In this document: positions 4,792 through 36,627 of the stretch, piece after piece
Layout of the letters: each line of letters begins with the position of its first letter
How positions within the stretch are numbered: the stretch's first letter is position 1
Assembly: GCA_910585045.1 (NCBI GenBank)
Contig: CAJUCD010000003.1
Location: forward strand, 42,779-106,778
Source of the DNA: an uncultured Bacilli bacterium
Lineage (GTDB): Bacteria > Bacillota_I > Bacilli_A > RF39 > UBA660
Length of the DNA: 64,000 nucleotides
Reading direction: 5' to 3'
The notes under the pieces: generated by a model
Databases searched by the model: none
What the model was told of the DNA's origin: nothing
Seen by the model: the letters and a program-made list of their open reading frames with translations, nothing else
Made by a program: the position numbers and the translations under genes

Positions 4792-4812
4792 GATATTGAA
4801 TAGCAAAATTGA

Positions 4813-4839
4813 AAATCTATCAAATGATAGATTTTTTTT
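4813..4839 (+). terminator. rho-independent terminator (AAATCTATC-aaat-GATAGATTT + T-run)
   Basis: Perfect 9-bp stem followed by TTTTT, seen directly after the stop codon. Confidence 0.5.
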
Positions 4840-4926
4840 GTAGAACTAATACTAAATATCTTGAAATATGTCGAATTGTTTGGTAATATAAAAGTATAGT
4901 ATATATAATAGTTGTGGAGGCGTATT

Positions 4927-5526
4927 ATGAAGTTACATTCTAGTGAGAAGACAATTTTGTTAGCGATTGTTGTGTGTGTGTTGTTAATTTCTGGGGGATA
5001 TTCTTTTGCGTATTTTGTTAGTAATGGAGCTAATGTTACAGGTGAAGGAGGATCAACTAATATAAGTACTGCTAAGCTTATTAATGTTAAGTATGATGCT
5101 GGTTCTAGTAGTATTTCACTTGCAAATGCTTTACCAGGAGTAAAGTCAAGTAAGAATTTTAATATTACAGTAACTCCTATTGAGTCACAAAATACTGCTA
5201 ATTATACAATTAAATTGGTTATTAATTCTAATACTTTTGTTAAATGTACAGATGCTAATTATAATGCTAATAGTAATGCTTGTGTTAAAGATAGTGAAGA
5301 ACTTGTTTATACTTTGACTGATAGTGAAGGTGGAGTTTTTACAGGAGATATTACAGGAAAAACTGGTGAGATAGTATTGTTAAATGAAAGAAAAACAACT
5401 GCAGTAGAAGAAGTTTATAATTATACTTTAGAAGTAAGTTATAAGAATACAGGTGCGGATCAAAATCATAATTTTAATAAGACTTTAGAAGCTTTATTAA
5501 AAGTAGAACCTACAAAGGAAAATTAG
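4927..5526 (+). CDS. second SipW-cognate secreted protein (TasA-like paralog, about 200 aa)
   Basis: N-terminal TM segment followed by GGYSFAYFVSNGANVTGEGG, the same signal class. RBS GGAGG at 4916-4920. Start chosen at the ATG at 4927 (MKLHSSEK). Confidence 0.6.
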   Translation: MKLHSSEKTILLAIVVCVLLISGGYSFAYFVSNGANVTGEGGSTNISTAKLINVKYDAGSSSISLANALPGVKSSKNFNITVTPIESQNTANYTIKLVINSNTFVKCTDANYNANSNACVKDSEELVYTLTDSEGGVFTGDITGKTGEIVLLNERKTTAVEEVYNYTLEVSYKNTGADQNHNFNKTLEALLKVEPTKEN

Positions 5527-5634
5527 AAGCGATTATTTTCGCTTTTTTTATTTATTTGGAAGATATTTTACTATTTTATTATTGCGAATAAGAGCGCATT
5601 GTGTTATACTTTTTAATAGTAGGGAGTGTCAGTT

Positions 5635-8400
5635 ATGGATGATATGAATTTACAAGAACAGTATGCAATACTAGAAAAAGAAAGGGAAGAAGATAAAAGA
5701 AAAACTATTATAATTATAATTTTATGTATTTTAATTATATTAATTACCCTATTAGGATTGTATTTTGCTTATTCTAATGTTGGTAAAACTTGTACTTTGA
5801 ATTGTGATACCAATGGTGATGGAATTCCTGATACTAACTTAGATATTGATGGTGATGGAATTTGTGATATTAATTGCTTGGTTACTGGTAAAGATGGCAA
5901 GGAATATATGATAAATATTGATTACAATGGTGATAGAAAAGCACATTTTAATGTTGATACTGATGGTGATGGAATTCCTGATGTTAACTTAGTTAATAAA
6001 GATATTAATGGTGATGGAATTTGTGATTTTAACTGTGATATTGATGGTGATGGAAGGCCAGATATTAATATTGATTTAGATAACACTAATACATGTGATT
6101 TAAATTGCGATACCAATGGTGATGGCAAACCAGATATTAATATTGATACTAATGGAGATGGTAAATGCGATCTTAACTGTGATACTACGGGAGATGGAAG
6201 ACCAAATATAAACATTGATACCAATGGTGATGGAAAATGTGATCTTAACTGTGATACTAATGGAGATGGCAAACCAGATATTAATATTGATATTGATGGT
6301 GATAAAAAACCAGATATTAATATTGATATCAATGGAGATGGTAAACCAGACATAAATATTGATACTGATGGTGATGGCAAACCAGATATAAATATTGATT
6401 ATGATGGTGATGGAAAATGTGATTTCAACTGCGATACTAATGGTGATGGCAAACCAGATGATAATCTTATGAATCAAGATACCAATGGCGATGGTAAATG
6501 CGATCTTAACTGTGATACAAATGGCAATGGTAAACCAGATATTAATATTGATACTAATGGTGATGGCAAACCAGACATAAATGTTGATACTAATGGTGAT
6601 GGTAAACCAGATATAAATATTGATGTTGATAAAGATAAAAAACCAGATATAAATGTTGATACCAATGGCGATGGTAAACCAGATGATAATCTTATGAATC
6701 AAGACACAAACGGTGATGGAAAATGTGATTTCAACTGCGATACTAATGGAGATGGTTTCCCAGATATAAATATTGATATTGATGGTGATGGCAAATGCGA
6801 CCTTAACTGTGACACAGATGGTGATGGCAAATGTGATGTTAACTGCGATACTAATGGCGATGGTAAACCAGATATTAATATAGATGAAACTGGCGATGGC
6901 AAATGTGACATCAATTGTGATACTAATGGTGATGGCAAATGTGATGTTAACTGTGATACAGATAGTGATGGCAAATGTGATGTTAATTGTGACACCAATG
7001 GCGATGGTAAACCAGATATAAATATTGATACCAATGGTGATGGCAAATGTGATTTCAACTGCGACACAGATGGTGATGGTAAACCAGATGATAATCTTAT
7101 GAATCAAGATACAGATGGTGATGGTAAATGTGATCTTAACTGTGATACTAATGGAGATGGAAAGCCAGATATAAATATTGATAATAACGGTGACGGAAAG
7201 CCAGATACTAATATTGATACTAATGGTGATGGCAAACCAGATATTAATATTGATGTTGATAAAGATGGTAGACCAGATGTTAATATAGACACAGATGGTG
7301 ATAAAAAACCAGATGATAATCTTATGAATCAAGATACCAATGGCGATGGCAAATGTGATCTTAACTGTGACACAGATGGTGATGGGTTCCCAGATATAAA
7401 TATTGATATAGATGGCGATAAAGTTTGCGATTTAAATTGCGATAATGATGGCGATGGAAAATGTGATCTTAACTGTGATACAGATGGTGATGGCAAACCA
7501 GATACTAATATTGATACAGATGGCGATGGAAAGCCAGATAAAGATATAGATAAAGATGGTGACGGCAAACCAGATACTAATGTGGATAAAGATGGCGATG
7601 GTAATTGTGATTTAAATTGTGATGTTGATAAAGATGGTGTATGTGATTATAATTGTGACACCAATGGTGATGGAATTTGTGATTATAATTGTACAACTAC
7701 TTTTGAAAAGAATGCTAATTTAAAATCATTAACTATAAATAATTATGCTTTAAGTCCAGTATTTAATGAAAACATTACTAGCTATACAATAAGAGTTGGT
7801 TATAATACAAATAAAGTTAATATTAAAGCTGTTCCTGCTAATCCTAAAGCTACAGTGACTGGTGATGGAGAAGTAGTTCTTACAGGTAGTACAACATATA
7901 CTTCAGTAGTTGTAACTGCAGAGGATGGTACTAAGAAAACATATAATATAACAATTATTAAGAGTGATAAACCTGGTACTTCTGAGGGTGGAGACGATAA
8001 TGATAAAGTTGAAATTGAAAATGGTTCTTTAATTGTTAATTATACAAAAGATATTAATGTTAATAATATTTATCCAAAATGGAGAGGTTCTCAAACATTT
8101 ACAATAACTAATAAATCTAAGTCAACTGTAACTTATAATATTAATTTGAAAAATGTTATAAATACATTTAATAGTGATGACTTTAAATATACTTTATTTA
8201 AGGATAATGTGGTTTTAGTTAAACAAACTCCTGCTCCTAGAAAAGATGGCTCTATATATCAAAACTTAGTTCTTGCAGCTGGTGAATCTGCTACATTTGA
8301 ATTAAGATTTGAGTTTGTAGAAACTGGAAAGCCACAAGATGCTGATATAGGAGTACGTTATTCTTCTAAAGTAGAAATTAGTATTGTGTCTGTAAATTAA
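5635..8400 (+). CDS. large secreted repeat protein. It has a SipW-type signal anchor, about 45 tandem acidic Ca-binding-type repeats (DxNGDGKPDINID / CDLNCD, resembling thrombospondin type-3 repeats), and a C-terminal cadherin-like Ig/beta-sandwich region.
   Basis: Protein reads ...LLGLYFAYSNVGKTCTLNCDTNGDGIPD..., then dozens of DTNGDGKPDINID and CDLNCD units, ending in ...NANLKSLTINNYALSPVFNENITSYTIRVGYNT... (cadherin-like). RBS AGGGAG at 5621-5626. The ATG at 5635 is the likely start; the track used a GTG at 5626. Confidence 0.8.
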   Translation: MDDMNLQEQYAILEKEREEDKRKTIIIIILCILIILITLLGLYFAYSNVGKTCTLNCDTNGDGIPDTNLDIDGDGICDINCLVTGKDGKEYMINIDYNGDRKAHFNVDTDGDGIPDVNLVNKDINGDGICDFNCDIDGDGRPDINIDLDNTNTCDLNCDTNGDGKPDINIDTNGDGKCDLNCDTTGDGRPNINIDTNGDGKCDLNCDTNGDGKPDINIDIDGDKKPDINIDINGDGKPDINIDTDGDGKPDINIDYDGDGKCDFNCDTNGDGKPDDNLMNQDTNGDGKCDLNCDTNGNGKPDINIDTNGDGKPDINVDTNGDGKPDINIDVDKDKKPDINVDTNGDGKPDDNLMNQDTNGDGKCDFNCDTNGDGFPDINIDIDGDGKCDLNCDTDGDGKCDVNCDTNGDGKPDINIDETGDGKCDINCDTNGDGKCDVNCDTDSDGKCDVNCDTNGDGKPDINIDTNGDGKCDFNCDTDGDGKPDDNLMNQDTDGDGKCDLNCDTNGDGKPDINIDNNGDGKPDTNIDTNGDGKPDINIDVDKDGRPDVNIDTDGDKKPDDNLMNQDTNGDGKCDLNCDTDGDGFPDINIDIDGDKVCDLNCDNDGDGKCDLNCDTDGDGKPDTNIDTDGDGKPDKDIDKDGDGKPDTNVDKDGDGNCDLNCDVDKDGVCDYNCDTNGDGICDYNCTTTFEKNANLKSLTINNYALSPVFNENITSYTIRVGYNTNKVNIKAVPANPKATVTGDGEVVLTGSTTYTSVVVTAEDGTKKTYNITIIKSDKPGTSEGGDDNDKVEIENGSLIVNYTKDINVNNIYPKWRGSQTFTITNKSKSTVTYNINLKNVINTFNSDDFKYTLFKDNVVLVKQTPAPRKDGSIYQNLVLAAGESATFELRFEFVETGKPQDADIGVRYSSKVEISIVSVN
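5790..7700 (+). repeat. in-frame coding tandem repeats (39-54 nt units) encoding D-x-[ND]-G-D-G-K-[PC]-D loops
   Basis: Highly periodic ggtgatgg(c/t)aaaccagat / tgtgat(c/t)ttaactgtgat units are visible in the DNA. Confidence 0.8.
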
Positions 8401-8422
8401 GCTACTACAAGTAGCTTTTTTT
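8400..8422 (+). terminator. rho-independent terminator (AGCTACT-aca-AGTAGCT + T7)
   Basis: Perfect 7-bp stem immediately after the stop codon. Confidence 0.5.
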
Positions 8423-8499
8423 CATTTAGAAAATCACTAAATTTACTTGTAATTTGTCTAGTTATAAGCTATAATATTTGTAGAATAGGAGGGGCCTTT

Positions 8500-9255
8500 G
8501 TGAAAGCACAAAGTAGTTTGTCAGCTAATAAATTTTTGAAAGTGTTTGGAAAAATTGTTTCTTGGGCCCTTTTCATTGTACTTGTAGTAGCGGCTGTCTT
8601 TTTATTATATTATTATATTGCTACAAAAATATATACCGCTAAAGGTCCAGGTTATGAGCCTAAATTTTCTATTTATACAATAATAAGTGGATCTATGGAG
8701 CCTAATATAAAGGTTTATGATACTGTAATTAATGAACGTATTGACAATCCTAATGATATTGTTGTAGGTGATGTTATAACTTTTATATCTACAAGTTTAT
8801 TGTCGCCTGGGACGACTATAACGCACCGTGTTATTGCTCTTACAACAGATGAAAATGGTAATATTTGTTATCAAACTAAAGGAGATAATAATGCAGTGGC
8901 AGATCAAGCTTGCGCTAAATTTCATAACGTTTTAGGTAAGGTTATTCTTAAAATACCACAATTAGGTAGGGTTCAATTCTTTTTGGCCTCAAAAGCTGGA
9001 TGGTTATTATGTATTTTAATTCCTGCTTTAATTATTATTGGTAGAGATATTATGCGAATTACTAAATTGACTGCAATTAAGAAAACTACTCAAAAAATTA
9101 ATGATAAAGAGAAAAAAGATCCTAAAAAGATAGTTTTTGAACAGGGTAGAAAAGAAAATTTAAAAAGAAAATTGTTAAATGATGTTAATGAGTCTAAATA
9201 TTATTATGAAGATCCAAAAGTGATTGAAATTGATAGACAAAAGAAAAGGAAATAG
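8500..9255 (+). CDS. sipW: signal peptidase I, SipW/archaeal-eukaryal S26 type, with a Lys-rich C-terminal tail
   Basis: N-terminal TM segment, the catalytic box IISGSMEPNIKVYDTVI (SGSMEP), and a second conserved block GDNNAVADQ. GTG start after AGGAGG. Confidence 0.75.
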   Translation: MKAQSSLSANKFLKVFGKIVSWALFIVLVVAAVFLLYYYIATKIYTAKGPGYEPKFSIYTIISGSMEPNIKVYDTVINERIDNPNDIVVGDVITFISTSLLSPGTTITHRVIALTTDENGNICYQTKGDNNAVADQACAKFHNVLGKVILKIPQLGRVQFFLASKAGWLLCILIPALIIIGRDIMRITKLTAIKKTTQKINDKEKKDPKKIVFEQGRKENLKRKLLNDVNESKYYYEDPKVIEIDRQKKRK

Positions 9256-13494: not shown

Positions 13495-13791
13495 TTGGAT
13501 AAGGACTTCTTTCATTTGTTTAATATAGGAAATATATTGTATTCAGTAAGTTTTTTCTGGAAGGTTTGTATCCTCAATTTCATAGTACCTTCTATCAAAT
13601 GTGAATTTCGCGACTTATATAATCTAAAAATTGATTTAGTCATTGCTAATGAAATTATACATGTGGGTTTAGAAAATGATACTAATAAGAATTTTTATTT
13701 ATATAATGGCGAAAATTATTGGGATGGTATTAATAAGTGGGCTTGCTGGTCGACTAAATGGTGTTCATTCAATGGTGAGCAGTCTTGTTAA
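13495..13791 (+). pseudogene. possible relic of the secreted-protein family at 14523/28456 (has FYLYNGENYWDGINKW; compare KQYYLYNGQHYWTMSPYW)
   Basis: Short ORF with no RBS. Its C-terminal 25 aa resemble the conserved module of the two large paralogs. Weak. Confidence 0.2.
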
Positions 13792-13830: not shown

Positions 13831-14283
13831 TTATTTGTAGTATTTGGGACTATCGGTTTTTCCTAATAAATAATCTGCTGAAATTAAATAAGTCTTACAA
13901 ATTTCATATAAAAAAGGAGTTGCTATTATATTTGTTCCACGTTCATATTCTGTTATTGTAGTTCTAGATATGTTTAGTTGTTTGGCAAGTTGTTCTTGCG
14001 TGATTTTGTTGTCTTTGCGTAATTCTTTAAGACGTTTTTTAGATATTTCTTTATTAATACTTTTGGCATTTTTATAATTTGGAATATCACTAAAACTGAA
14101 TATGTAGTCTATTGAAACATTAAAATAGTTACAAAGAGTACTTAAATGTTTAATTGGTATAATAATATATTCTCTTTCATATTCATTATATACGCCTTTA
14201 TAAATACCTATTACGTCGGCTATTTCATATTGTTTTTTATTTTTATTTTCTCTTAGCTCAGTTAGCCTTTCATTATATAGCAT
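13831..14283 (-). CDS. transcriptional regulator with two tandem XRE-type HTH domains
   Basis: Two HTH_3-like segments (QYEIADVIGIYKGVYNEYERE... and ITQEQLAKQLNISRTTITEYERG...). Paralog of 27725..28183, and divergent from the gene at 14523. Confidence 0.75.
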   Translation of the reverse strand: MLYNERLTELRENKNKKQYEIADVIGIYKGVYNEYEREYIIIPIKHLSTLCNYFNVSIDYIFSFSDIPNYKNAKSINKEISKKRLKELRKDNKITQEQLAKQLNISRTTITEYERGTNIIATPFLYEICKTYLISADYLLGKTDSPKYYK

Positions 14284-14353
14284 ATAATCACCATACTAAT
14301 TTTCTCATAGATTATTTATTATAGAATTATGTCCTAAAATAATGACATTTTTC

Positions 14354-14382
14354 TTGACAAATATTATAGAAAATATTAAAAT
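14354..14382 (+). promoter_or_regulatory. putative promoter TTGACA-17-TAAAAT for the gene at 14523
   Basis: Consensus -35, 17-nt spacer, AT-rich -10, lying in the divergent intergenic region. Confidence 0.3.
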
Positions 14383-14522
14383 GAATATATAAAGTAGAAA
14401 TTTCTGATTTATAAAATTATAAAACAAATTATAGGAATAAAGATATTTTTTAATATGCCTTAATATATGAAGTAAGACATCTTATAATTTGCTTGATTGT
14501 GTAATTAGAAAGTAGGAAAGAA

Positions 14523-16328
14523 ATGAAACGAAAGAATAAAAAATTAATAGTAATAGTAAGCTGTCTACTATTAGTAATAAGTGTATCTTTAGCGTATTAT
14601 ATTGGCCAAATATTAATAAATGGCGAAGGAGCTAAAGGAAATGCAACAACAGCTAAAATAAAAGGAGCGACTCTAACAGTAGAAGGGAAGTTAGAGTTTA
14701 ATGATTCAGATATATTACCAGGTTATAAGACTATATCAAGTATAAAGGTAACAGCAACAGGAAATAATGAGTTAATACCATATAATTTAATCTGGAAGGG
14801 AACAAATGGCATAAGTAAAATAAATTATACAGTATATAAAACAAGTAGTGAGATAAATGTAAGTGCTAGTTGTGAGAAGAAGGCAACAGTCCAAAATGGA
14901 GTGCAAATATTGAATGAGGAATGCTCAATAACTAACTTAGATAATTTAGGTTCCTTTATAGCAAGTGGCTCAATAATTAAGAATAGCACTAAAGAAATAC
15001 TAACAAGTGATGAATTTATAACTGCAACTAATGATGGAGATACAAAGTATTATTATGTGATATTAGAGTATCCAAATTTAGATGAAGATCAGAGTAGTGA
15101 TATGGATGCAACATTTGAAGGCATTGTCACCGTAGAAGAGAGCAATGCCACATCTGATATTAATATCATGGCTGTATATCTAGGTGATGAAGTAGGAAAC
15201 TATACCGAAACAACTGATATACCAGGGAGTGGTTATATACTCAGTGAGAAGAGTACATGTAGTAATAATGCGGTTCCTGTATGGGATTATAATAATAGTG
15301 GGTTACTAACTAAAAATCTTACTAAAAGTGGAACCAGTTGTTATTTATATTTTAATAAATTAAAAACAGTAAATACAATACTAGGAAATATTGAGGTTAA
15401 TCCTGAGGTTAAAACAATATTTGATAAAGCAGCTATAGCTGATGAAGGTGTACAATCTGGAATTGATGAAGATGGAACTACTTATTATTGGCGAGGAGCA
15501 GCGACCACCAACTATTTAAAGTTTGCAGGCTATTGTTGGCGAATAGTTAGAATAAATGGTAGCGGAACGATAAGATTGATTTATAGTGGAAATACTTGTC
15601 AACCTAATACGGCTATACTGAAAGATGCTGTTATTTCTGTTAGCGCCTTTAATAGCATAAGCCTAGATAATGCTTATGTAGGATATATGTATGGAACTAC
15701 TGATAGTAATACATATGAAGAGACGCATGCAAATATAAATAATAGTACAATAAAAGAAGTTCTAGATGAGTGGTATAAGACTAATATTTTAGAAAAGGGT
15801 TATGATGGTTATGTTGCTAAAGAAGATGGTTTTTGTAATGATAGAACTATAATTAAGACTGCTGAAACTGGTTATGTGGGTGATGGGTATAATAAATTGC
15901 CAACTAGCTATGGTCCATTTGGAAGATTTGTTTTAGATAATGATTTTATTAAAAAAAATATGAATCCTACTTTTTTGTGTAGTCAAGTAAATGATTTGTT
16001 TACATATAACTTAGCAACAAAAGGAAATAAAATGTTAAGTTATCCTGTAGGGCTTATAACAGTTGATGAAGTTATTTTTGCTGGGGGTTATTCTCAGGTG
16101 GCTAATGCTAATTATTATCTTAATATTGGAGTGCCATTTTGGACTATGTCTCCTTATCATTATCATGTAGAATATTATGCAGTACAATTTGGTGTATATG
16201 CTGATGGGCGATTACAATGGCTCTTAGGTAATGAAATAGAACATGGAGTAAGGCCTGTCATAAATCTTCGCTCTGATATTCAAATTTTAGATGGTGATGG
16301 TACTATTGATAATCCATATGTAGTTTAG
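14523..16328 (+). CDS. secreted protein: SipW-type signal, then a TasA/camelysin-like domain of about 200 aa, then a conserved C-terminal module of about 400 aa with unknown function
   Basis: N-terminus KKLIVIVSCLLLVISVSLAYYIGQ. Motif TKYYYVILEYPNLDEDQ shared with the TasA-like 4102 protein. C-terminal module (NTILGNIEVN...YYWRGAATTNYLKFAGYCWRIVRINGSGTIRLIYSG...RPVINLRSDIQILDGDGTIDNPYVV) nearly identical in blocks to the 28456 protein. Confidence 0.7.
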   Translation: MKRKNKKLIVIVSCLLLVISVSLAYYIGQILINGEGAKGNATTAKIKGATLTVEGKLEFNDSDILPGYKTISSIKVTATGNNELIPYNLIWKGTNGISKINYTVYKTSSEINVSASCEKKATVQNGVQILNEECSITNLDNLGSFIASGSIIKNSTKEILTSDEFITATNDGDTKYYYVILEYPNLDEDQSSDMDATFEGIVTVEESNATSDINIMAVYLGDEVGNYTETTDIPGSGYILSEKSTCSNNAVPVWDYNNSGLLTKNLTKSGTSCYLYFNKLKTVNTILGNIEVNPEVKTIFDKAAIADEGVQSGIDEDGTTYYWRGAATTNYLKFAGYCWRIVRINGSGTIRLIYSGNTCQPNTAILKDAVISVSAFNSISLDNAYVGYMYGTTDSNTYEETHANINNSTIKEVLDEWYKTNILEKGYDGYVAKEDGFCNDRTIIKTAETGYVGDGYNKLPTSYGPFGRFVLDNDFIKKNMNPTFLCSQVNDLFTYNLATKGNKMLSYPVGLITVDEVIFAGGYSQVANANYYLNIGVPFWTMSPYHYHVEYYAVQFGVYADGRLQWLLGNEIEHGVRPVINLRSDIQILDGDGTIDNPYVV

Positions 16329-16458: not shown

Positions 16459-16791
16459 ATGTTAAAAGTTGATATGGAATATGAGAAAGGTATTTTATAT
16501 GTTAGATTGAAAGGAATATTAGATAGAAAGAATTGTTATAAGATTAATAATTATATTGTGCCCGTTGTTTTAAAGCATAAAATAAGATATTTAGTTTTTA
16601 ATTTATTTGAATTAAGAGATATTGATGAATCTGGTTTAGATTCGCTTCTTAATACAAAATGTGCAATTAGAACTAATAAGGGTAAAATTTGCTTGTGTGA
16701 AGTAAGTGATGATTTAAGATTAAAAATAAAGAGATTGAGAATGAAAGTAGCTTCTAATGAACTTGCTGCTAATAGGTTAATAAATATATAA
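16459..16791 (+). CDS. STAS-domain anti-sigma-factor antagonist (SpoIIAA/RsbV-like)
   Basis: 110 aa; DIDESGLDSLLN aligns with the DSSGLG phospho-serine loop of SpoIIAA. Stop overlaps the start of the sigma gene. Confidence 0.55.
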   Translation: MLKVDMEYEKGILYVRLKGILDRKNCYKINNYIVPVVLKHKIRYLVFNLFELRDIDESGLDSLLNTKCAIRTNKGKICLCEVSDDLRLKIKRLRMKVASNELAANRLINI

Positions 16792-17432
16792 TGACAACTA
16801 ATGAACTTATAGCGGCCCATATGGGTTTGATTAAAAATATTGCAGGCAAATTTTATAATTGTGAAAAAGAAGATTTAATTCAGGTGGGAGTTATTGGTTT
16901 ATTAAAAGCTTATCAAAATTTTAATGATACAGGAGAAACACAATTTAGTACATATGCATATACATATATATTTGGTGAAATGTATGCTTTAGCAAATCAA
17001 GCAAGAAATATTAAAATTAGTAAAGATTTGTTAAGACTTTATCGAGAAGTAGAAAAAGTTAGATATGATTTAGCTCAAAAATATAATAGATTAGTTTCTT
17101 ATGAAGAAGTGGCTTTATTTTTAGAGCAAGATGTCAATAAAGTGTATGATGCTGTAAATAGTGCGCAAGCTATGATTTCTCTTGATGATGAAGCTAATGC
17201 ACTTAATTTGCATGAAGTTATTCCTGATAGAAATAGAGATAATCCAGATTTAAAAATAGATTTGGATAATAGTTTTAGTGTTCTTAATAGTGAAGAACAA
17301 GAAATTATTAAATCGCGTTATTTTGAGGATTTGACACAATCTGAAGTAGCACATAAACTTAATATGACTCAAGTAATGGTATCAAGATATGAAAAGAAAA
17401 GCTTAGAGAAGATGCGAGCGGTTATGATGTAG
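16791..17432 (+). CDS. RNA polymerase sigma factor, SigF/SigG/SigB subfamily
   Basis: Region 2 (DLIQVGVIGLLKAYQNFN...FSTYAYTYIFGEM) and region 4 (LTQSEVAHKLNMTQVMVSRYEKKSLEKMR). Confidence 0.8.
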   Translation: MTTNELIAAHMGLIKNIAGKFYNCEKEDLIQVGVIGLLKAYQNFNDTGETQFSTYAYTYIFGEMYALANQARNIKISKDLLRLYREVEKVRYDLAQKYNRLVSYEEVALFLEQDVNKVYDAVNSAQAMISLDDEANALNLHEVIPDRNRDNPDLKIDLDNSFSVLNSEEQEIIKSRYFEDLTQSEVAHKLNMTQVMVSRYEKKSLEKMRAVMM

Positions 17433-26988: not shown

Positions 26989-27717
26989 ATGATTGGTATA
27001 TTTGATTCTGGAATAGGCGGAGTAACAGTATTTAAAGAAATATTAAAAAGTTTACCTAACTATCAATATTTGTATTATAGTGATTCTATTAATAATCCAT
27101 ATGGCGACAAAAATAATGAAGAATTAATTAGCATTACAAGAGAAATAGTTAAGTATTTAATTAAACGTGGAGCAAAAATAATAGTTATTGCTTGTAATAC
27201 TGCTAGTGCAATATGCAAAGATGACTTAAGAATAGAGTTTGATATACCAATTATTGCAATAGAACCAGCGATAAAATTAGCTTATGATTTGTCATATGAT
27301 AAGAAAACTTTAGTGCTTGCAACAAAAGGAACTTTGGAATCAAATAAGTTTAGAGAATTATATCAGAAATATAATAATTATAATATGACTATTTATGAAT
27401 GTGTAGGGTTAGCAGATTTAATAGAGAAAAATGAAGAAGATAAAATTAATGAATATTTAATTAATAATATAAAAAAATTTAGGGGAGTAAATAATGTTGT
27501 TTTAGGTTGTACACATTATCCTATTATAAAAGATAAAATAAAAAGTGCTTTAGGTCAAGTTGATTTTTATGATGGTAGTTTAGGGGTAGTTAAACAGCTG
27601 AAAAAAGTTATTATAGCAAATAACTTGGAAGAAACTAAACTAGATATTAAGTTTATAGATAGTAGTAATAGTAAAATAAAAGAAGATAGATTTTATGAAA
27701 TATTAAAAGAGGATTAA
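26989..27717 (+). CDS. murI: glutamate racemase
   Basis: IGIFDSGIGGVTV, the IACNTAS catalytic Cys block, and GCTHYP. Confidence 0.85.
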   Translation: MIGIFDSGIGGVTVFKEILKSLPNYQYLYYSDSINNPYGDKNNEELISITREIVKYLIKRGAKIIVIACNTASAICKDDLRIEFDIPIIAIEPAIKLAYDLSYDKKTLVLATKGTLESNKFRELYQKYNNYNMTIYECVGLADLIEKNEEDKINEYLINNIKKFRGVNNVVLGCTHYPIIKDKIKSALGQVDFYDGSLGVVKQLKKVIIANNLEETKLDIKFIDSSNSKIKEDRFYEILKED

Positions 27718-27724
27718 TTAAGGA

Positions 27725-28183
27725 TTAATTAGAAATTAATTCTTTTAATTTGACTTTTTCGTCTATTCTTCCCATGATATAATCAGCAGAAATATTAAAT
27801 TCTTTAGCATAAGCTTTTAAAAAAGAAGTTAAAATTAGTGTTTGACCATTTTCATAGCGAGATATAACACCATTGTCTGTGTTTAGGATTTTAGCAATTT
27901 TATCTTGGGTATATTTATTAGTTTTACGAATACTTTTTAACCTTTCACGATGAGTATTATAATCTATTTCTTTTTGGATATTTTGGTAAGTTTTTTCATT
28001 AGTAAGACCTAATGCATAATCTAGCGATATATTAAAATGATTGCAAAAGTCAATAAGTCTATTTAAAGGAATTATATTAATTTCTGCTTCCCAAACGGAA
28101 TAAGTACTACGGGTTACTCCCAGTATACTTGCAATATCATTTTGAGAAAGTTCATATTCTTCTCTTATGTACTTTAAATTCAT
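27725..28183 (-). CDS. transcriptional regulator with two tandem XRE-type HTH domains (paralog of 13831..14283)
   Basis: LSQNDIASILGVTRSTYSVWE... and YTQDKIAKILNTDNGVISRYENG.... Divergent from the gene at 28456. Confidence 0.75.
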   Translation of the reverse strand: MNLKYIREEYELSQNDIASILGVTRSTYSVWEAEINIIPLNRLIDFCNHFNISLDYALGLTNEKTYQNIQKEIDYNTHRERLKSIRKTNKYTQDKIAKILNTDNGVISRYENGQTLILTSFLKAYAKEFNISADYIMGRIDEKVKLKELISN

Positions 28184-28455
28184 TTTTTTCGCTCCAAACT
28201 CTTAATAATTAAATTGTATCGAAAAAAGCATATAACAAAATATTTAGCTGCAATATAACATAAAAATATTGAATTTCACTCAATAATATTGTATACTAGA
28301 AATATATCATAGAAAGTGGCAATTAATTTTTTTGTTAGCTATATTTGAGCTTATTTGTGTAAATGATGATTGTTGACAAGTTTTGATAAGTTTTGTCGAA
28401 GCTAATGAAAGTTAAGAAAATAGTAATTATAATAATTGTGAAAGGGTAGGATATT

Positions 28456-29739
28456 ATGAAATTTGAGGTTATAGAAAAAAGTAAAAAGAAGAGATGGATA
28501 ATAGGAAGTATAGCTGTAATAGGGTTAATATCAATAGGAATATATGCGGGTAGTTATGCTAAGTATCAGAATATAGAAGATATAAAACTAGTAGAAGGAA
28601 ATATAAATTATAAACCATATGATTTTAAAATGATGGCAATGTATAAGAGTGATGATGGAACAAATTATACAGAGATAGATAAAACTCCCAGATCTAATTA
28701 TAAAATTAATGAAGAAAAAAGTTACTGTACTCTAAATAATGTAGATAAAGATAATTCAGCAAGAATTTATACAGATAGATTTGGTCATCATGTATTTAAT
28801 AACCTTTCTAAGAATAGTAAGTGTTATATTTGGTTTGATAAAAATACGGAAGTAGTAAATACAGTATTAGGGAATATCGAAGTAAATAACTATATCCCAG
28901 ACTTTAGTGAGGCTGCTACAACAGATGAAGGAATCCAACAAGTGAGTGATGGAATGTATGGAGGGACATCATATTATTGGCGAGGAGCAGCCACAACAAA
29001 CTACTTAAAATTTGGTGGATATTGTTGGCGCATCATCAGAATCAATGGAGATGGAACTATAAGATTAATTTATGATGGAACAACTTGTCATGCAAATGGC
29101 GAAGAAACGACAGATAGTATAGCAGTAGAAAATGTAGTATATAATTCAAGCTATAACAAGAGCGAATATGTAGGCTGGACATACACAGAAGGCTTACAAA
29201 GACCAGTAAATAATAATGAAGGCACATCATCAAATGCGAAAACAAAATTAGAAGAATGGTATAATACAAATTTAAAGAGTCAAGAATCAAAAATAGCAGA
29301 TGGAAAATACTGTAATGATCGAAATGTAGAAAGTGGACAAAGTTGGTCAAGTACACCAAGCAGTATGTTTCTCTATACAGGATATAAGAGAATATATACA
29401 GATTATGCACCAACACTAAATTGTGGGTCATTAGATACATACACATTAAAAGTAGGACTCATAACAGCAGATGAAGTAGAATTTGCAGGCGGCAAAAACG
29501 CAGATAACAAGCAATATTACCTATATAACGGTCAGCATTACTGGACAATGTCTCCGTACTGGAGCCAAAGTGATGGTGAAATTGTTATGTTCGCTGTGCG
29601 TGGCGACAATAGCGGCTGGTTGGGCCACGGTTATGTTAAATGGACTGATCTTGATATACGTCCAGTAATAAATTTACGTTCAGATATTACAATATCAAGC
29701 GGAAATGGCACTTTAGAAAATCCTTATATTGTGGCTTAA
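28456..29739 (+). CDS. secreted protein carrying the conserved unknown module (paralog of the C-terminal 400 aa of 14523..16328)
   Basis: N-terminal TM/signal ...IGIYAGSYAKYQN. Shared blocks NTVLGNIEVN, YYWRGAATTNYLKFGGYCWRIIRINGDGTIRLIYDG, RPVINLRSDITISSGNGTLENPYIVA. Confidence 0.7.
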   Translation: MKFEVIEKSKKKRWIIGSIAVIGLISIGIYAGSYAKYQNIEDIKLVEGNINYKPYDFKMMAMYKSDDGTNYTEIDKTPRSNYKINEEKSYCTLNNVDKDNSARIYTDRFGHHVFNNLSKNSKCYIWFDKNTEVVNTVLGNIEVNNYIPDFSEAATTDEGIQQVSDGMYGGTSYYWRGAATTNYLKFGGYCWRIIRINGDGTIRLIYDGTTCHANGEETTDSIAVENVVYNSSYNKSEYVGWTYTEGLQRPVNNNEGTSSNAKTKLEEWYNTNLKSQESKIADGKYCNDRNVESGQSWSSTPSSMFLYTGYKRIYTDYAPTLNCGSLDTYTLKVGLITADEVEFAGGKNADNKQYYLYNGQHYWTMSPYWSQSDGEIVMFAVRGDNSGWLGHGYVKWTDLDIRPVINLRSDITISSGNGTLENPYIVA

Positions 29740-29821
29740 AAAATAAATTAGTAACTTGTGTAAAGTTGCTTTTTTTAATGATTTCTTTTTGGTATAATTT
29801 TATTAGTTAGGTGGTAGTAAG

Positions 29822-32800
29822 ATGTTTGATAAATTAAATGATAGACAAGAGGAAGCTGTTCGTCATGTAGATGGTCCATGTTTAGTTATAGCGGGAGCAG
29901 GTTCAGGGAAAACTAAAGTGCTTACGACAAGAATTGCTTATTTGATTGATCAGGGAATAAGTGATTATAATATTTTAGCTATAACATTTACCAATAAGGC
30001 AGCTAAGGAGATGCGTGAAAGACTTAGTCATTTAGTACCTGATAATCATGTTTTTGTAGGAACTTTTCACTCTTTTGGCTTAAAGATTATTAGAGAAAAT
30101 GTAGCCGAACTAGGAATGGATAAAAATTTTACAATTATTGATAGTGATGATGTATTGAGTTTAATTAAAAGAATTATGAAAGATTTAAATTTGGATCCAA
30201 AAGAGTTAAGTCCTTATTTTGTAAGAAGTAAGATAAGTTTTATTAAAAATGAATTATTAACAGATGGAGATTTGGATAAGTTTTTTAATACACCTGCTGA
30301 GAAAAGTGTAATAAATGTATATCATGAGTATGATAAAATATTAAGAAGAAATAATTCAGTAGATTTTGATGATTTATTAGCTTTACCAGTAAAGTTATTT
30401 CGAAATAATAAAGATATTTTAGATAAATATCAAGAACATTATAAATATATTTTAATTGATGAGTATCAAGATACAAATGAAGTGCAGTATAAATTGAGTA
30501 GATTAATTGGTGCAAAGTATAAAAATATTTTCGTTGTAGGTGATGCCAATCAATGTGTCGTAAAGGGTTCTAAAATTAAAACTAAATTGGGAGAAAAAAA
30601 TATTGAGGATATAAAAGAAAATGATGAAGTTTTGACTGCTGTTGGTTATGGAGGAGTGGATTATCAACTTGTTGAAAAAATAATTCCTACCAAATATGAA
30701 GGTAAAATAGTTAAGATTACAACTGAATCAGGACTTATATTAGAATGTACTCCAGATCATACAATGTTTTATAAATTGCCTATTGAAGATAGTAAATATT
30801 ATGTATATTTAATGTATAAAAATAATTTAGGTTTTAGAATTGGGCAAACTAGGTCATATAGAAGTGATGGTAGAAAAATTGTTAATGGTTTAATGCAAAG
30901 ACTTAATCAAGAACATGCAGATAGAATTTGGCTTTTAAAACAATGTGATAGCCAGATGGAAGCTAGTTATTATGAACAGTTTTATGCCGCAAAGTATGGT
31001 ATTCCGCAAATGTGTTTTCATGTGATAGGAAGAAAAATGCTTTTTACTCAAGATTATATAAATAAATTATTTGCTAATATAGATACTGATCTTAGAGCAG
31101 CTATGTTAATGAATGAAGAAATGCTTTCTTTTGATTATCCACATTATATGAAAAGTGGATTTGTACATAAAAGTGTTTCAAATCGAGTAGTAAATATTAG
31201 TTATTTAAGTTGTGAGAAAGCTAAAAAGAGGAATTATTGCGCTCAAAGAATTAGTTTTAATACGACATCTTCAGAATATCGTTTAATGTTAGAAAATGCT
31301 GGGTTTAATGTAAGAAATGGAAAAAATAAAGATTTTAGAATTGAAACTGAGAGAATTACAATGAATGAAGCTTATGATTTTGCTAATAGAATAGCTTTTT
31401 TCATTCCAGATGTTTCGATAGTTGAAAAGATACGTTTAACAAAAGAATTATCTTTTAAGTTTCTTCCAGCTGGATCTTTAAGAAGCGGTATGGTTGTAGC
31501 AGTATTAAAAAATGGTGAATTGGTAGAAGAAAAAATTATAAAAATAGATAAATTAGATTATAATGATTATGTTTATGATTTATCTATTCCTACTACGAGA
31601 AATTTTATTGTTAATGACATTTGTGTTCATAATTGTATATATGGTTTTAGAGGTTCAAATTTTAGAAATATTCTTAATTTTGAAAAAGATTATGGGGATG
31701 CTAAAGTTGTTGCCTTAGAACAAAATTATCGTAGTACAAAGAATATTTTAGATGCTGCTAATTCAGTTATTAAAAATAATAAAGAACGTAAAGATATGGA
31801 GTTATTTAGTAATTTAGGTGATGGTGTTAAAGTTAAGTATTTGCGTAGTTATGATGAAAAACATGAAGTAACTTTGATTGTTGATGAAATAAAAAGATTA
31901 ATTAGTGATGGATATAAATATAGTGATATAGCAATTTTTTATAGAACAAATGCTCAATCAAGAAATGTTGAAGAAGTTATGCTTAAAAATAATTTTCCTT
32001 ATAAAGTTTTTGGTAGTTTTTATTTCTATAGTCGTAAAGAAATTAAAGATTTGCTATGTTATTTGAGACTTATTAATAATCCTAATGATGATATAAGTCT
32101 TAGAAGAGTAATAAATGTGCCTAAGAGAAAGATTGGTAATAAAAGTGTAGAAGACTTGGCTGGAATGGCTGAGAGACTTAATACTTCAATGTTTGAAGCA
32201 ATTGATGGAGGTAAAGAAGGAGAATTTAAAAATCTGATTATTGAACTTCAGAATGATGCTTTAAATCTTTCATTAACAGAATTAATAGATATAGTATTAG
32301 AAAAAAGTGGATTAAAGAAAGAATTAGAAACTGAGAAAACTTTAGATAGTGAACTTAGATTAGAAAACTTAATGGAGTTTAAGAGTATTACAGCTTCTTT
32401 TGAGGCAAGAACTGGTTCAGTTAATTTAGGAGATTTTCTTGATGAAATAAGTTTAGTCGCTGATATAAGTGAGCATGAAGATAATGATGATGTTATAACT
32501 TTAATGACACTTCATAGTGCTAAAGGTTTGGAATTTCCAATTGTGTTTATAACAGGAATGGAAGAAGGTATTTTTCCTCATCAAAATGCTTTTTTAGAAG
32601 GGGATGAAGGTATAGAAGAGGAAAGGAGACTTTGTTATGTTGGATTTACAAGAGCTAAAGAGAGATTATATTTAACTAATGCTAAAAAAAGAATGCTCTA
32701 TGGTAAAACAACTGTTAATGCACCTTCAAGATTTATTAGTGAAATTCGTGATGATGTTATGGAAGCTAGTAATTTAAGTATTAAAGAAGAAAAAGTTATT

Positions 32801-32983
32801 AACAAAAATGAAATGTATAATGAAGAATCAACAGAATATAATAAGGGAGATATTGTTATGTCTACTATATATGGTAGAGGTGTGGTAATAGATATTGATG
32901 ATAGATTTGTAACCGTTGCTTTTGCACGTAATTTTGGAGTTAGAAAACTTATGAAAAATCATAAGAGTTTAAAGAAAATTTAG
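29822..32983 (+). CDS. pcrA: ATP-dependent DNA helicase PcrA/UvrD, interrupted in helicase motif III by a 360-aa intein
   Basis: Walker A AGAGSGKT and the motif TFTNKAAKEM. The intein is inserted as VGDANQ | C...VHN | CIYGFRGS. C-terminal UvrD motifs LMTLHSAKGLEF and YVGFTRAKERLY. Confidence 0.9.
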   Translation: MFDKLNDRQEEAVRHVDGPCLVIAGAGSGKTKVLTTRIAYLIDQGISDYNILAITFTNKAAKEMRERLSHLVPDNHVFVGTFHSFGLKIIRENVAELGMDKNFTIIDSDDVLSLIKRIMKDLNLDPKELSPYFVRSKISFIKNELLTDGDLDKFFNTPAEKSVINVYHEYDKILRRNNSVDFDDLLALPVKLFRNNKDILDKYQEHYKYILIDEYQDTNEVQYKLSRLIGAKYKNIFVVGDANQCVVKGSKIKTKLGEKNIEDIKENDEVLTAVGYGGVDYQLVEKIIPTKYEGKIVKITTESGLILECTPDHTMFYKLPIEDSKYYVYLMYKNNLGFRIGQTRSYRSDGRKIVNGLMQRLNQEHADRIWLLKQCDSQMEASYYEQFYAAKYGIPQMCFHVIGRKMLFTQDYINKLFANIDTDLRAAMLMNEEMLSFDYPHYMKSGFVHKSVSNRVVNISYLSCEKAKKRNYCAQRISFNTTSSEYRLMLENAGFNVRNGKNKDFRIETERITMNEAYDFANRIAFFIPDVSIVEKIRLTKELSFKFLPAGSLRSGMVVAVLKNGELVEEKIIKIDKLDYNDYVYDLSIPTTRNFIVNDICVHNCIYGFRGSNFRNILNFEKDYGDAKVVALEQNYRSTKNILDAANSVIKNNKERKDMELFSNLGDGVKVKYLRSYDEKHEVTLIVDEIKRLISDGYKYSDIAIFYRTNAQSRNVEEVMLKNNFPYKVFGSFYFYSRKEIKDLLCYLRLINNPNDDISLRRVINVPKRKIGNKSVEDLAGMAERLNTSMFEAIDGGKEGEFKNLIIELQNDALNLSLTELIDIVLEKSGLKKELETEKTLDSELRLENLMEFKSITASFEARTGSVNLGDFLDEISLVADISEHEDNDDVITLMTLHSAKGLEFPIVFITGMEEGIFPHQNAFLEGDEGIEEERRLCYVGFTRAKERLYLTNAKKRMLYGKTTVNAPSRFISEIRDDVMEASNLSIKEEKVINKNEMYNEESTEYNKGDIVMSTIYGRGVVIDIDDRFVTVAFARNFGVRKLMKNHKSLKKI
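30554..31633 (+). other. intein (1080 nt / 360 aa) inside pcrA
   Basis: Begins with Cys (tgt at 30554), has block B TPDHTMF, ends ...NDICVHN, and is followed by Cys+1 (tgt at 31634). Removing it restores the uninterrupted motif VGDANQ-CIYGFRGS. Confidence 0.8.
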
Positions 32984-32993
32984 GAGATAATTT

Positions 32994-33641
32994 ATGAAAA
33001 TAAGAAAGTATCCTCAGTCTTGTTTCTTGATTGAGGCTAATAATAAAATAATATTAGTAGATCCAGGAATGTTGAAGTTTCAAAGTGAATTTATTGATGA
33101 TTGGTGTAGGGCAGATATGATTTTAATTACTCATAAACATTCTGATCATATAAATGCTCAAGTAATTAAAGATTTAAATATTCCTATATATGCTACAAAA
33201 GAAGTACAAGATACTTATCCAGATATAAAGTTTAATATTGTAGAAGATGGTAATAATTTAGTTTTTGATACTTTAAAAATAGAAGTAGTTAAAGCTGTAC
33301 ATGGTTATAATCCTAAACTAAAAGGTAAAGGTGAAGTTTTATTTAATGTGGGTTATATAATTGATGATGGTAAAGTAAGATTTTATATAACTAGTGATAC
33401 AATTTGTTTTAATAATGATTATAAAGCAGATATAGTAGCTTTACCTGTAACTGGGTATGGACTTACAATGTCATCTTATGAGGCTTCTTTGTTTGCAATA
33501 GATTTAAAAGCGAAGTTAGTGTTGCCAAGTCATATGGATAATAGTGTTTATCCAACTGATTTAAAGTATATGGAAAAGAATTTTAAAGAGTTTAATATTA
33601 ATTATAAAGTATTAGATATTTTAGAAGACATAGAAGTTTAG
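32994..33641 (+). CDS. metallo-beta-lactamase-fold hydrolase
   Basis: THKHSDH, an HxHxDH metal-binding motif. Confidence 0.7.
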   Translation: MKIRKYPQSCFLIEANNKIILVDPGMLKFQSEFIDDWCRADMILITHKHSDHINAQVIKDLNIPIYATKEVQDTYPDIKFNIVEDGNNLVFDTLKIEVVKAVHGYNPKLKGKGEVLFNVGYIIDDGKVRFYITSDTICFNNDYKADIVALPVTGYGLTMSSYEASLFAIDLKAKLVLPSHMDNSVYPTDLKYMEKNFKEFNINYKVLDILEDIEV

Positions 33642-33731
33642 GCTTTTATGTTTTTTTTATACTTATTTTAGTTTAGACTATTCATTGTAATTATTAAATG
33701 GTATAATTGAGTTAGATGATGGAGGTTATTT

Positions 33732-36627
<2,896 letters not shown>

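Follow-up and report, generated by a model that had tools for sequence, protein, structure and literature searches.

The gene pair located between murI and pcrA in an uncultured, apparently mouse-gut Bacilli bacterium encodes a DNA-binding regulator with two HTH domains and a putatively exported protein, and the predicted lectin-like head of this protein is exchanged between several similar loci in different strains. Thus, the pair most likely represents one locus of a recombination-driven, variable, ligand-binding surface protein system rather than a plain duplicate, although export, the ligand and the role of the regulator are inferred. Here, we analyzed a 64-kb stretch of DNA (hereafter the window), in which the initial annotation had described this pair as a second copy of a regulator plus secreted-module cassette also present at 13831..16328. 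The features of this pair (cassette B) and of the related pair (cassette A) are as follows:

27725..28183 (−): regB, a 152-aa Xre-type regulator made of two tandem HTH_3 domains
28184..28455 (no strand): divergent control region ('class 2' intergenic region)
28269..28297 (+): promoter-like site P1, TTGAAT-17-TATACT, embedded in the palindrome ATATTGA..TCAATAT
28368..28400 (+): three 10-bp direct repeats (TTGTTGAC / AAGTTTTGAT / AAGTTTTGTC) followed by GAA, a candidate operator for the tandem-HTH regulator
28405..28433 (+): promoter-like site P2, ATGAAA-17-TATAAT, directly downstream of the repeats, with a Shine-Dalgarno-like AAGGGTAGG at 28442..28450
28456..29739 (+): modB, a 427-aa putatively exported protein with a signal peptide, a predicted beta-sandwich stalk and a C-type-lectin-like head
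28456..28557 (+): locus-specific 5' part of modB, encoding a basic n-region, a 22-residue hydrophobic core and a putative S-Y-A|K-Y-Q signal-peptidase site (codons 1-34/35; cleavage inferred)
28558..28930 (+): stalk homology box, encoding the mature N-terminus, the beta-sandwich domain (model strands 60-144) and the linker VNTVLGNIEVN
28930..29739 (+): exchangeable head, an enlarged C-type-lectin-like domain (residues ~158-427), distantly related to DUF6273
29566..29655 (+): hypervariable segment of the head (residues 371-400), just before the invariant RPVINL strand
13831..14283 (−): regA, the paralogous tandem-HTH regulator of cassette A
14523..16328 (+): modA, a 601-aa paralogue with an extra jelly-roll N-domain
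13585..13779 (+): decayed remnant of a third head, matching modB residues 318-375

The observation made in the initial annotation was confirmed. Both open reading frames sit exactly at the stated coordinates, in divergent orientation, between a glutamate racemase gene (26989..27717; PF01177) and a UvrD/PcrA-type helicase gene (29822..32983). In a Pfam search, HTH_3 and HTH_19 each matched two stretches in both regB and regA (HTH_3, E 1.7e-23 for regB), and the internal repeat was also visible in the pairwise alignment, in which the two regulators were 39% identical over 136 aa (E 2e-33). ModB aligned with residues 212-601 of modA at 40% identity over 420 columns (E 4e-71, with compositional adjustment), and the conserved blocks YYWRGAATTNYLKF[AG]GYCWRI[IV]RING.GTIRLIY and RPVINLRSDI were found in both. 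Lack of similarity beyond compositional bias had been set beforehand as the result that would refute paralogy, and the observed similarity is far beyond such bias. As the initial annotation had noted, modB lacks the ~210-aa N-domain of modA. However, the proposed TasA-like nature of this domain was rejected, as no profile or fold match to TasA/camelysin (Peptidase_M73) was obtained. The third module fragment at 13585..13779 was detected by tblastn (E 3e-9) and is also present in another locus (L059; L and P numbers denote the loci, contigs and sequences compared here).

On the other hand, the interpretation in the initial annotation was only partly supported. The regulator and module do form a recurrent two-gene unit: the tandem-HTH gene was the only neighbour family that recurred next to the module, being present in 26 of 80 loci lying in many unrelated housekeeping contexts, and in about 23 of about 39 close-relative loci that have upstream sequence. 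In addition, a related lineage (L099/L100) has murI directly next to pcrA, and no remnant of the cassette could be found in the empty site of L099. However, cassette B is not a recent second copy of cassette A. The two share only one 240-nt stretch of DNA at 71% identity, and belong to different promoter/regulator classes, each with its own relatives in other genomes; they are old paralogues. The cassette is also old at this site, as it occupies the same murI-pcrA position in a lineage whose MurI is only 68% identical. In that lineage the regulator is 66% identical but the module only 39-40%, a contrast in rate that fits variation of the module. It was suggested that the pair had moved as a unit; on the basis of our results, what moves today is not the pair but segments of the module gene, above all the C-terminal head.

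The control region of cassette B was aligned with those of seven regB-type cassettes from other genomes, and blocks were conserved although the coding regions have diverged. P1 was conserved in most or all of these eight class-2 regions, the -10 positions of P2 were invariant (P2 gave 10 of 12 matches in a promoter scan), and the direct repeats formed a near-invariant block, AAGTTTTGACAAGTTTTGTCGAAnnTAATGAAA, although other class-2 cassettes have two units rather than three. This block is unique in the window (0 matches expected by chance), and no other site with the class-2 repeat or the class-1 palindrome was found there. Binding by the regulator and promoter function are inferred from these sequences alone. 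No Rfam match was found in the intergenic region, and the whole window has only three tRNAs by the same search. An invertible promoter was rejected: weak inverted repeats flank P1, but no strain showed the flipped orientation, the only differences being point changes and a T7/T6 tract difference.

The module is predicted to have the same fold as a solved DUF6273 domain and as the CTLD core. Pfam and NCBIfam scans of both module proteins found no family; modB had no PF19789 hit even at E<=1, whereas 11 of 33 close relatives hit this profile weakly (best E 4.6e-4) and a few database relatives carry a precomputed PF19789 tag. Sequence and profile searches against PDB found nothing meaningful. The family is large, with 10,389 clusters at 50% identity (E<=1e-3), and reaches 8-15 loci per genome in several gut Bacilli MAGs. 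Among 120 homologues, the highest column entropy was found at residues 371-400 (2.50, 1.65 and 2.66 bits in successive 10-residue blocks), where within-genome nucleotide identity was also lowest (37-46%). This segment lies at the same position as the variable region of DUF6273 domains targeted by diversity-generating retroelements (DGRs) (10.1101/2024.10.15.618418; PMC11792537). Three disulfides (C91-C123, C190-C211 and C286-C323) are putative.

Comparison of conspecific strains provided evidence for head exchange. In L087, L089, L090 and L004, the flanks, regB, the intergenic region and the first 450 nt of modB were ~95-100% identical to the window (regB was 99.6-100% identical in nucleotides in all conspecific contigs, whichever head allele they carry), whereas the head was only 65-74% identical, with breakpoints at 28900-28930 and at the stop codon. 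The same heads reappeared elsewhere. The head of the window was 100% identical behind a C-type signal peptide (P0002/L109), and was 94% (nucleotide) and 97% (amino acid) identical in a modA-type gene of another species whose remaining parts were 76.5% identical. The head of L090 was 100% identical to the head P0016 of locus C, which, like cassette D, lies outside the window. Mosaic blocks differed by pair. Identity between loci B and C was about 52-55% up to 28557, rose abruptly and was ~90-100% (50-nt bins) across the ~370-nt stalk box; cassettes C and D shared the promoter, leader and signal peptide at 98-100% and the start of the head at 96-98%. This points to general homologous recombination, and a fixed site-specific recombination site was considered unlikely, because the shared blocks differ between cassette pairs and the SNP patches in the box are mosaic.

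Both reciprocal types of flank junction between B and C were found, which fits a chromosomal inversion, although only in contigs from short-read metagenome assemblies in which chimeric joins through the box are not excluded. L090 carries murI-regB-5'B, the C head and gpsA-rarA-xerC, whereas L095 and L109 carry the C 5' part, a B-linked head and pcrA-ligA (L095 also shows ThiF-regC upstream); the C-left + pcrA junction occurred on two different pcrA-linked head alleles. It should be noted that allele replacement with both B flanks and the cross-species transfer do not depend on these hybrid contigs. Not all observations favored a variable system. Cassette A is invariant in the population, with the same gene content in all 23 contigs read, the fully assembled copies within other multi-copy MAGs showed no elevated identity in the stalk region (although such copies are biased against repeats), and the GTDB representative genome carrying cassette A gave no hit for a B-type module.

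Taken together, we consider it more likely than not that cassette B is one expression site of a multi-locus family of exported ligand-binding proteins. In this view, RegB would bind the conserved 10-bp repeats next to P2 and so control modB, whose product would be exported and would carry its head on a conserved beta-sandwich stalk; the C-type-lectin-like fold is the scaffold that phages and bacteria use for variable receptor binding. Homologous recombination or gene conversion would act at conserved joints (the stalk box, the conserved first part of the head, the 3' end of the gene and, in class-1 cassettes, the promoter-leader), exchanging heads among B, C and D in this species and even between species. 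Crossover between B and C in the stalk box probably inverts the chromosome segment between them, so that each head would come under the other regulator, promoter and signal peptide. The analysis itself establishes the paralogy, the fold (from models), the family size, the regulator linkage, the mosaic alleles and the shared boxes, whereas export, surface location, ligand binding, regulator function, inversion and the biological role, proposed as variable adhesion or evasion of host IgA or phage on the bacterial surface in the gut, are inferences without experimental support.

Several other explanations were considered. The most serious, though still unlikely, is that head exchange is real but occurs only by short-patch gene conversion, the B/C inversion being an artefact of assemblers that mis-joined the two loci through the stalk box. 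Indeed, no differences lie between about 28575 and 28763 (about 190 nt) when the B copy of the window is compared with the C copy of L094, many MAG contigs of relatives begin or end in the stalk part of the gene, many contigs break inside the module gene (L091, L092) and others in the class-1 leader just upstream of it (L105, L106, L108, L109), and hybrid contigs are rarer than normal ones. The contig breaks inside the gene are only suggestive of high-frequency switching within a clone. However, the two reciprocal junction types come from different samples, the record name of L090 differs in style from the two XIAO15-1 scaffolds, and a second species shows alternative downstream flanks after an otherwise 99.9% identical cassette (L097/L098). 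It is much less likely that these are static paralogues, duplicated or moved once, with apparent head swapping reflecting deep allelic divergence or assembly noise. The age and divergence of the two cassettes, the invariance of cassette A and the occupation of the murI-pcrA site since before a 32% MurI divergence would fit this, but point mutation cannot produce 65-74% identity confined to 810 nt with sharp edges between flanks that are 99-100% identical, nor 100% identical heads behind different signal peptides and flanks, nor the 94% identical head in an otherwise diverged gene, and the replaced alleles recur in independent assemblies (L004, L087, L089, P0005-P0007).

The remaining possibilities appeared very unlikely. 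An origin from a prophage, tailocin or satellite could be suggested because DUF6273/C-lec domains are receptor-binding and DGR-target domains of gut phages (PMC10743442; PMC11792537; 10.1101/2024.10.15.618418) and the regulators score on the phage RstR repressor model. However, no phage structural, integrase or lysis gene was adjacent in the window or in the 80 loci, the flanks are housekeeping genes, a Foldseek search against viral structures gave only one weak, uninformative hit, and a signal peptide does not suit a virion protein. A polymorphic toxin locus, as in Rhs/CdiA/LXG systems, would share the constant-N, variable-C mosaic with recombination at the junction, but all heads are homologous and keep the same lectin-like core and invariant motifs, the predicted fold is CTLD, no toxin, LXG, Rhs or PT-domain hit was found, and an 82-nt spacer leads straight to pcrA without any open reading frame for an immunity protein. 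Least likely is a DGR target, in spite of the fold class shared with Mtd, TvpA and TaqVP and the hypervariable segment at the C-terminal end of the domain: in blastn of modB against the window only modA was found (71%), with no template-like repeat, no reverse transcriptase or accessory gene was called next to the cassette, the allelic differences span the whole head and include indels rather than adenine-specific substitutions in a ~100-nt region, and identical heads at other loci are a signature of recombination.

A more speculative possibility, which we regard as rather unlikely on present evidence but not excluded, is that cassettes B, C and D form a programmed switch, in which inversion through the stalk box would re-wire alternative heads between two expression sites governed by different dedicated regulators, and the bacterium would thereby change which host or phage ligand-binding head it displays under which condition. 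This would be a recombination-based counterpart of DGR diversification of the same scaffold, perhaps driven by, or aimed at, mucosal IgA or host glycans, given that the closest solved relative of the head sits on an IgA peptidase.

The C-type-lectin scaffold was already known to be diversified by retroelements in phages; if our interpretation is correct, it is also diversified by head swapping between paralogous chromosomal loci in uncultured gut Bacilli, apparently from mouse. This would give the large, uncharacterised DUF6273-like family a testable biological context in cellular gut bacteria, and points to specific regulators and candidate operators. These loci also appear to be hotspots of chromosomal rearrangement and of metagenome assembly breaks, which matters for strain tracking and MAG quality in this lineage.

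With regard to known systems, the regulators resemble Xre/Cro-C1 family repressors, including the RstR-family model NF041951, for which regA scored 87.9 bits (above the cut-off of 80) and regB 70.5 bits (below it); here, however, the two HTH domains are tandem in one 150-aa chain, paired with a specific exported-protein gene. The closest solved structure is the N-terminal domain (A31-A321; Pfam DUF6273) of the Thomasclavelia ramosa IgA peptidase IgAse/ThomasA (PDB 9qa6), which is fused to an M64 metallopeptidase, single-copy, dispensable for IgA cleavage and of unknown function (PMC12237041), and which has a zinc site (D78/H90/C126), whereas here the domain is the C-terminal head of a small stalked protein, multi-copy and recombinationally variable. 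In C-lec/DUF6273 variable proteins of DGRs (Bordetella phage Mtd, Treponema TvpA, Thermus TaqVP and gut-phage tentaclins), a short variable region is mutagenized by reverse transcriptase, whereas here whole heads are exchanged among paralogous loci. Mycoplasma vsa/vpma/vsp systems and Neisseria pilE/pilS gene conversion likewise involve a multigene family of surface proteins in host-associated, low-GC, reduced-genome bacteria, mosaic alleles, and a junction inside the coding region just after the signal peptide or N-terminal part, but rely on site-specific Xer-like recombinases at fixed sites or on silent donor cassettes. In our data, B, C and D each have a promoter-like region, a start codon, a signal peptide and their own regulator, the only silent piece seen being the remnant at 13585..13779. 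Finally, in the Campylobacter fetus sap S-layer locus, RecA-dependent inversions occur between conserved 5' regions of sapA homologues. The paralogues there also share a conserved 5' coding box with variable 3' parts, and recombination in the box, including inversion of the intervening DNA, re-pairs 5' ends with alternative 3' parts, as is inferred here for B and C; however, sap moves one promoter among clustered, silent homologues, whereas here each cassette has its own promoter and dedicated regulator and the loci are dispersed among housekeeping genes.

We first confirmed the positions and similarity of the two genes under study. Both ORFs lie where the initial annotation had placed them, and the features concerned are as follows:

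26989..27717, glutamate racemase gene (murI)
27725..28183, minus strand, regB, a regulator of 152 aa with two HTH_3/HTH_19 domains
28456..29739, plus strand, modB, a protein of 427 aa
29822..32983, UvrD/PcrA-type helicase gene (pcrA)
13831..14283, regA, the regulator gene of cassette A
14523..16328, modA, the module gene of cassette A
13585..13779 (inside ORF 13495..13791), decayed fragment of a third head

regB and modB are divergent, are separated by 272 nt and lie between the glutamate racemase and helicase genes. The regB product is 39% identical to the 13831..14283 regulator (E 2e-33), and the modB product is 40% identical to residues 212-601 of the 14523..16328 protein (E 4e-71), with the nearly identical sequence blocks noted initially all present, whereas the first ~210 residues of modA are lacking. 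The decayed fragment at 13585..13779 matches modB residues 318-375 (E 3e-9), lies tail-to-tail with regA and is also present in L059, a 99%-identical genome. Thus, the observation that this pair is paralogous to the 13831/14523 pair was confirmed, and the similarity is far beyond what the AT-rich composition (26.7% GC) could produce. By contrast, the interpretation of the pair as a second copy of that cassette, inserted between murI and pcrA, was only partly supported, as described below.

Neither module protein matches any Pfam or NCBIfam family or any PDB sequence. The family is nevertheless very large: a word-indexed search found more than 5800 relatives, and an exhaustive profile search found 10,389 clusters at 50% identity with E<=1e-3 and 2,918 with E<=1e-30, including giant proteins with up to 20 copies of the module. 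An AlphaFold2 model built on 33 relatives is confident (pLDDT 83, pTM 0.80). In this model residues 1-57 (signal peptide and linker) are of low confidence, residues 60-145 form a beta-sandwich and residues ~150-427 form a mixed alpha/beta domain. The closest solved relative of the head is the N-terminal domain (A31-A321) of the Thomasclavelia ramosa IgA peptidase (PDB 9qa6), which has been described in two papers published in 2025 as Pfam DUF6273, an enlarged C-type-lectin-like domain that is dispensable for IgA cleavage and has no known function (PMC12402451, PMC12237041). Consistently, 11 of 33 relatives of modB hit PF19789 weakly (best E 4.6e-4), although modB itself does not. In gut phages, DUF6273/C-lec domains are receptor-binding proteins and DGR targets, with the variable region at the C-terminal end of the domain (PMC10743442, PMC11792537, 10.1101/2024.10.15.618418). 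In the modB family, the most variable stretch is residues 371-400, directly before the invariant RPVINL strand, where the 10-residue blocks have column entropies of 2.50, 1.65 and 2.66 bits and within-genome nt identity is 37-46%. Six invariant cysteines (C91, C123, C190, C211, C286 and C323) are present, and the N-terminus has a basic stretch, a 22-residue hydrophobic core and then S-Y-A|K-Y-Q. Both features fit an exported protein, although export is inferred from sequence alone.

To examine how far the two genes belong together, we scanned one genome per species, which returned 80 loci. Several gut MAGs labelled Bacilli, Tenericutes or Erysipelotrichaceae hold 8-15 loci each (for example, MGBC164908 and SRR15510222_bin.10), and record names (MGBC isolates and a contig named 'mouse.gut.metagenome') point to mouse gut. 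Clustering of all neighboring ORFs showed that the tandem-HTH regulator is the only recurrent neighbor. It was found in 26 of 80 loci, always divergent and 130-270 nt upstream, which corresponds to about 23 of about 39 close-relative loci that have enough upstream sequence, whereas the other neighbors are unrelated housekeeping genes. In some genomes (loci L021, L024, L055 and L057), a regulator is followed by a modB-type gene and then a modA-type gene in tandem on one strand, so that the two architectures can form one operon-like array.

The intergenic regions fall into two classes. Class 1 goes with regA-like regulators (17 loci) and has an almost invariant TTGACT-17-TATAAT promoter and a leader containing the palindrome TCTAATATAATTGAGCGCTCATTATTTAGA. 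The class-1 promoter and leader are almost invariant at ~110 nt across cassettes of different genomes (loci L005, L007, L009 and others; 5880..5985 in L094, a contig carrying cassette C of this species). Two class-1 cassettes, L019 and L045, carry a GCGC to GGCC change that preserves this 30-nt palindrome (L025 has GGCCCC), and the element could be an operator or an RNA hairpin. Class 2 goes with regB-like regulators (the cassette under study, here termed B, and seven others) and shows the following elements in the window:

28269..28297, conserved TTGAAN-17-TATACT element
near-invariant block AAGTTTTGACAAGTTTTGTCGAA..TAATGAAA, immediately upstream of a conserved -10 (28405..28433)
28326..28332, poly-T tract between the first promoter-like element and the direct repeats

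The near-invariant block consists of 10-bp direct repeats, three in the window and two elsewhere, and is unique in the window. Direct repeats one helical turn apart are what a monomer with two tandem HTH domains would be expected to bind, although such binding is inferred. The poly-T tract is T7 in the window and T6 in the conspecific contig L090, which, apart from a variant patch next to the start codon in contig L091, is the only length difference seen in the control region among conspecific strains. Cassette A has a diverged class-1 promoter, and A and B share only 240 nt of DNA at 71% identity. They are therefore ancient paralogues from different sub-lineages, and B is not a recent copy of A.

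Several other features of the window were observed around these genes. Immediately downstream of cassette A (16459..17432) lie genes for a STAS-domain protein (anti-sigma-factor-antagonist type) and a sigma-70-family factor, an arrangement that is conserved in another locus, L096. At 4102..9255, two small proteins (4102..4791 and 4912..5526) are paralogues of the predicted jelly-roll N-domain of modA and have an A-Y-F motif after the hydrophobic segment. They are followed by a 924-aa SD-repeat/cadherin-like protein (5626..8400) and an ORF with a weak signal-peptidase S26 hit (8500..9255), which may represent a dedicated export or fibre operon.

With regard to whether B was inserted between murI and pcrA, all 22 contigs examined that encode an identical MurI carry the cassette. 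A lineage whose MurI is only 68% identical has it at the same place (GT-murI-reg-mod-pcrA), with a regulator that is 66% identical but a module that is only 39-40% identical. On the other hand, another lineage at 67% MurI identity (contigs L099 and L100) has murI directly followed by pcrA, with no remnant of the cassette. Thus, an occupied and an empty site both exist, whether through gain or loss, and the occupancy is old. It should be noted that L059 (CAXHRJ010000001.1, a 678-kb contig), the GTDB representative that carries cassette A at 99% identity, produced no hit for a B-type module, although B should lie about 14 kb away and every allele contains the search motifs; loss, masking or rearrangement could be the cause. 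The neighboring helicase gene (29822..32983; 1053 aa) carries an intein (PF14890), which is also present in the L099 lineage (1054 aa), whereas a close relative (GCA_026338125.1) and the lineage of contig L097 have an intein-less PcrA of 693 aa, so that its presence and absence are patchy.

Our main finding is that the head is exchanged. Among conspecific contigs, the regions outside the head are nearly identical in DNA: pnp, the glycosyltransferase gene, murI, regB and pcrA are 97-100% identical, the intergenic region is 95-100% identical and the first 450 nt of modB are 92-100% identical. However, in four of these contigs (L087, L089, L090 and L004), codons 151-427 are only 65-74% identical. 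The edges are sharp, in that identity falls at 28900-28930 and returns at the stop codon. The heads reappear elsewhere. The head of the window is 100% identical in P0002, a protein with a different signal peptide, and is 97% aa/93.8% nt identical in P0010, a modA-type gene of another species in a capsule-gene neighborhood, whose regulator and N-domain are only 76.5% identical to those of cassette A in the window. The head of L090 is 100% identical to that of protein P0016, and the head of L087 is 95% identical to those of P0013/P0014.

Looking up these proteins revealed further cassettes of the same species outside the window. Cassette C is arranged as gatB…ThiF-regC<->modC-gpsA-rarA-xerC-like (L094), with a class-1 control region and a regulator that is 44% identical to regB. 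Cassette D is arranged as folD-glyA-tmk-queA-regD<->modD (contig L104, in the same assembly as the B locus L087). The paralogues are mosaics. B and C share a box from 28558 to about 28930 at ~90-100% nt identity (50-nt bins), whereas their regulators, control regions and signal-peptide codons are ~50-60% identical and their heads 40-90% identical across bins. The box starts exactly at the putative signal-peptidase site, and the mature B and C proteins would therefore have the same stalk. C and D instead share promoter, leader and signal peptide (98-100%) and the first part of the head (96-98%), but not the stalk. The whole gene of D also occurs behind a different regulator (contig L107), and SNP patches inside the B/C box are themselves mosaic. 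Shared blocks that differ from pair to pair argue for general homologous recombination or gene conversion, and not for a recombinase acting at one fixed site. A gene for a 302-aa XerC/XerD-like tyrosine recombinase lies about 2.2 kb downstream of cassette C (L094:9548..10456 and L090:10017..10729); it is probably the housekeeping Xer, but the possibility that it has a role in the rearrangements could not be excluded.

Contigs joining the flanks of B and C were also identified. L090 joins murI-regB-5'modB to the C head and to gpsA-rarA-xerC, whereas contig L095 joins ThiF-regC-5'modC to a B-type head and to pcrA-ligA, its right-hand part being 99.65% identical to window 29691..35739. A further contig, L109, joins the 5' end of modC (its signal-peptide codons and 51 nt of leader) to a B-type head and pcrA-ligA. 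These are the two reciprocal products that would be expected from a crossover in the stalk box between oppositely oriented B and C, and an inversion of the segment between them is probable. It should be noted that these data, and those on the junctions and alternative flanks given next, all come from short-read metagenome contigs, that no differences lie between about 28575 and 28763 when the B copy of the window and the C copy of L094 are compared, and that contigs often break inside the module gene (L091 and L092) or in the class-1 leader just upstream of it (L105, L106, L108 and L109), so that chimeric joins cannot be excluded for the inversion. Neither the allele replacement with both B flanks, which was seen in several independent assemblies, nor the cross-species transfer depends on this. 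The C-left/pcrA junction exists on two different head alleles, that of L095 and that of L109, which carries the head of the window. In the lineage with 68% MurI identity, two otherwise 99.9% identical contigs diverge 22 nt before the stop codon of the module, and the alternative flank in one of them (L098:7870..8733) starts with a metallo-beta-lactamase-fold protein that hits the anti-Pycsar Apyc1 family. By contrast, cassette A had the same gene content in all 23 contigs examined.

On the basis of these results, we propose that modB would be exported and that its stalk would present a lectin-like head whose C-terminal loops (residues 371-400) form the variable binding surface. In this view, heads are re-assorted among expression sites by homologous recombination at conserved joints, and each site is controlled by its own tandem-HTH regulator, so that a B/C exchange would place a given head under a different promoter class and regulator. 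The paralogy of the pairs, the replacement of heads between nearly identical flanks and the mosaic structure of the cassettes were observed directly in the sequences, whereas export, ligand binding, the action of the regulators, the inversion and the function of the system are inferred. The likely selective agents, namely host ligands or glycans, mucosal antibody or phages, are likewise suggested by inference only. We also considered that the cassettes might be static paralogues, that the inversion (but not the exchange of heads) might be an assembly artefact, or that the locus might be a prophage remnant, a polymorphic toxin or a DGR target, and judged each of these less likely.

Among the papers on DUF6273 that we consulted, which deal with phages or the IgA peptidase, none describes this cellular family. 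The predicted fold and its probable role match DUF6273/C-lec receptor-binding domains, and the logic of variation matches that of recombinational surface-variation systems, such as the sap locus of Campylobacter fetus, vsa/vpma of Mycoplasma and pilE/pilS of Neisseria. The cassettes differ from all of these systems in that the loci are dispersed, that each locus has a promoter and a dedicated regulator, with no pool of silent donors seen, and that the recombination joints are variable.
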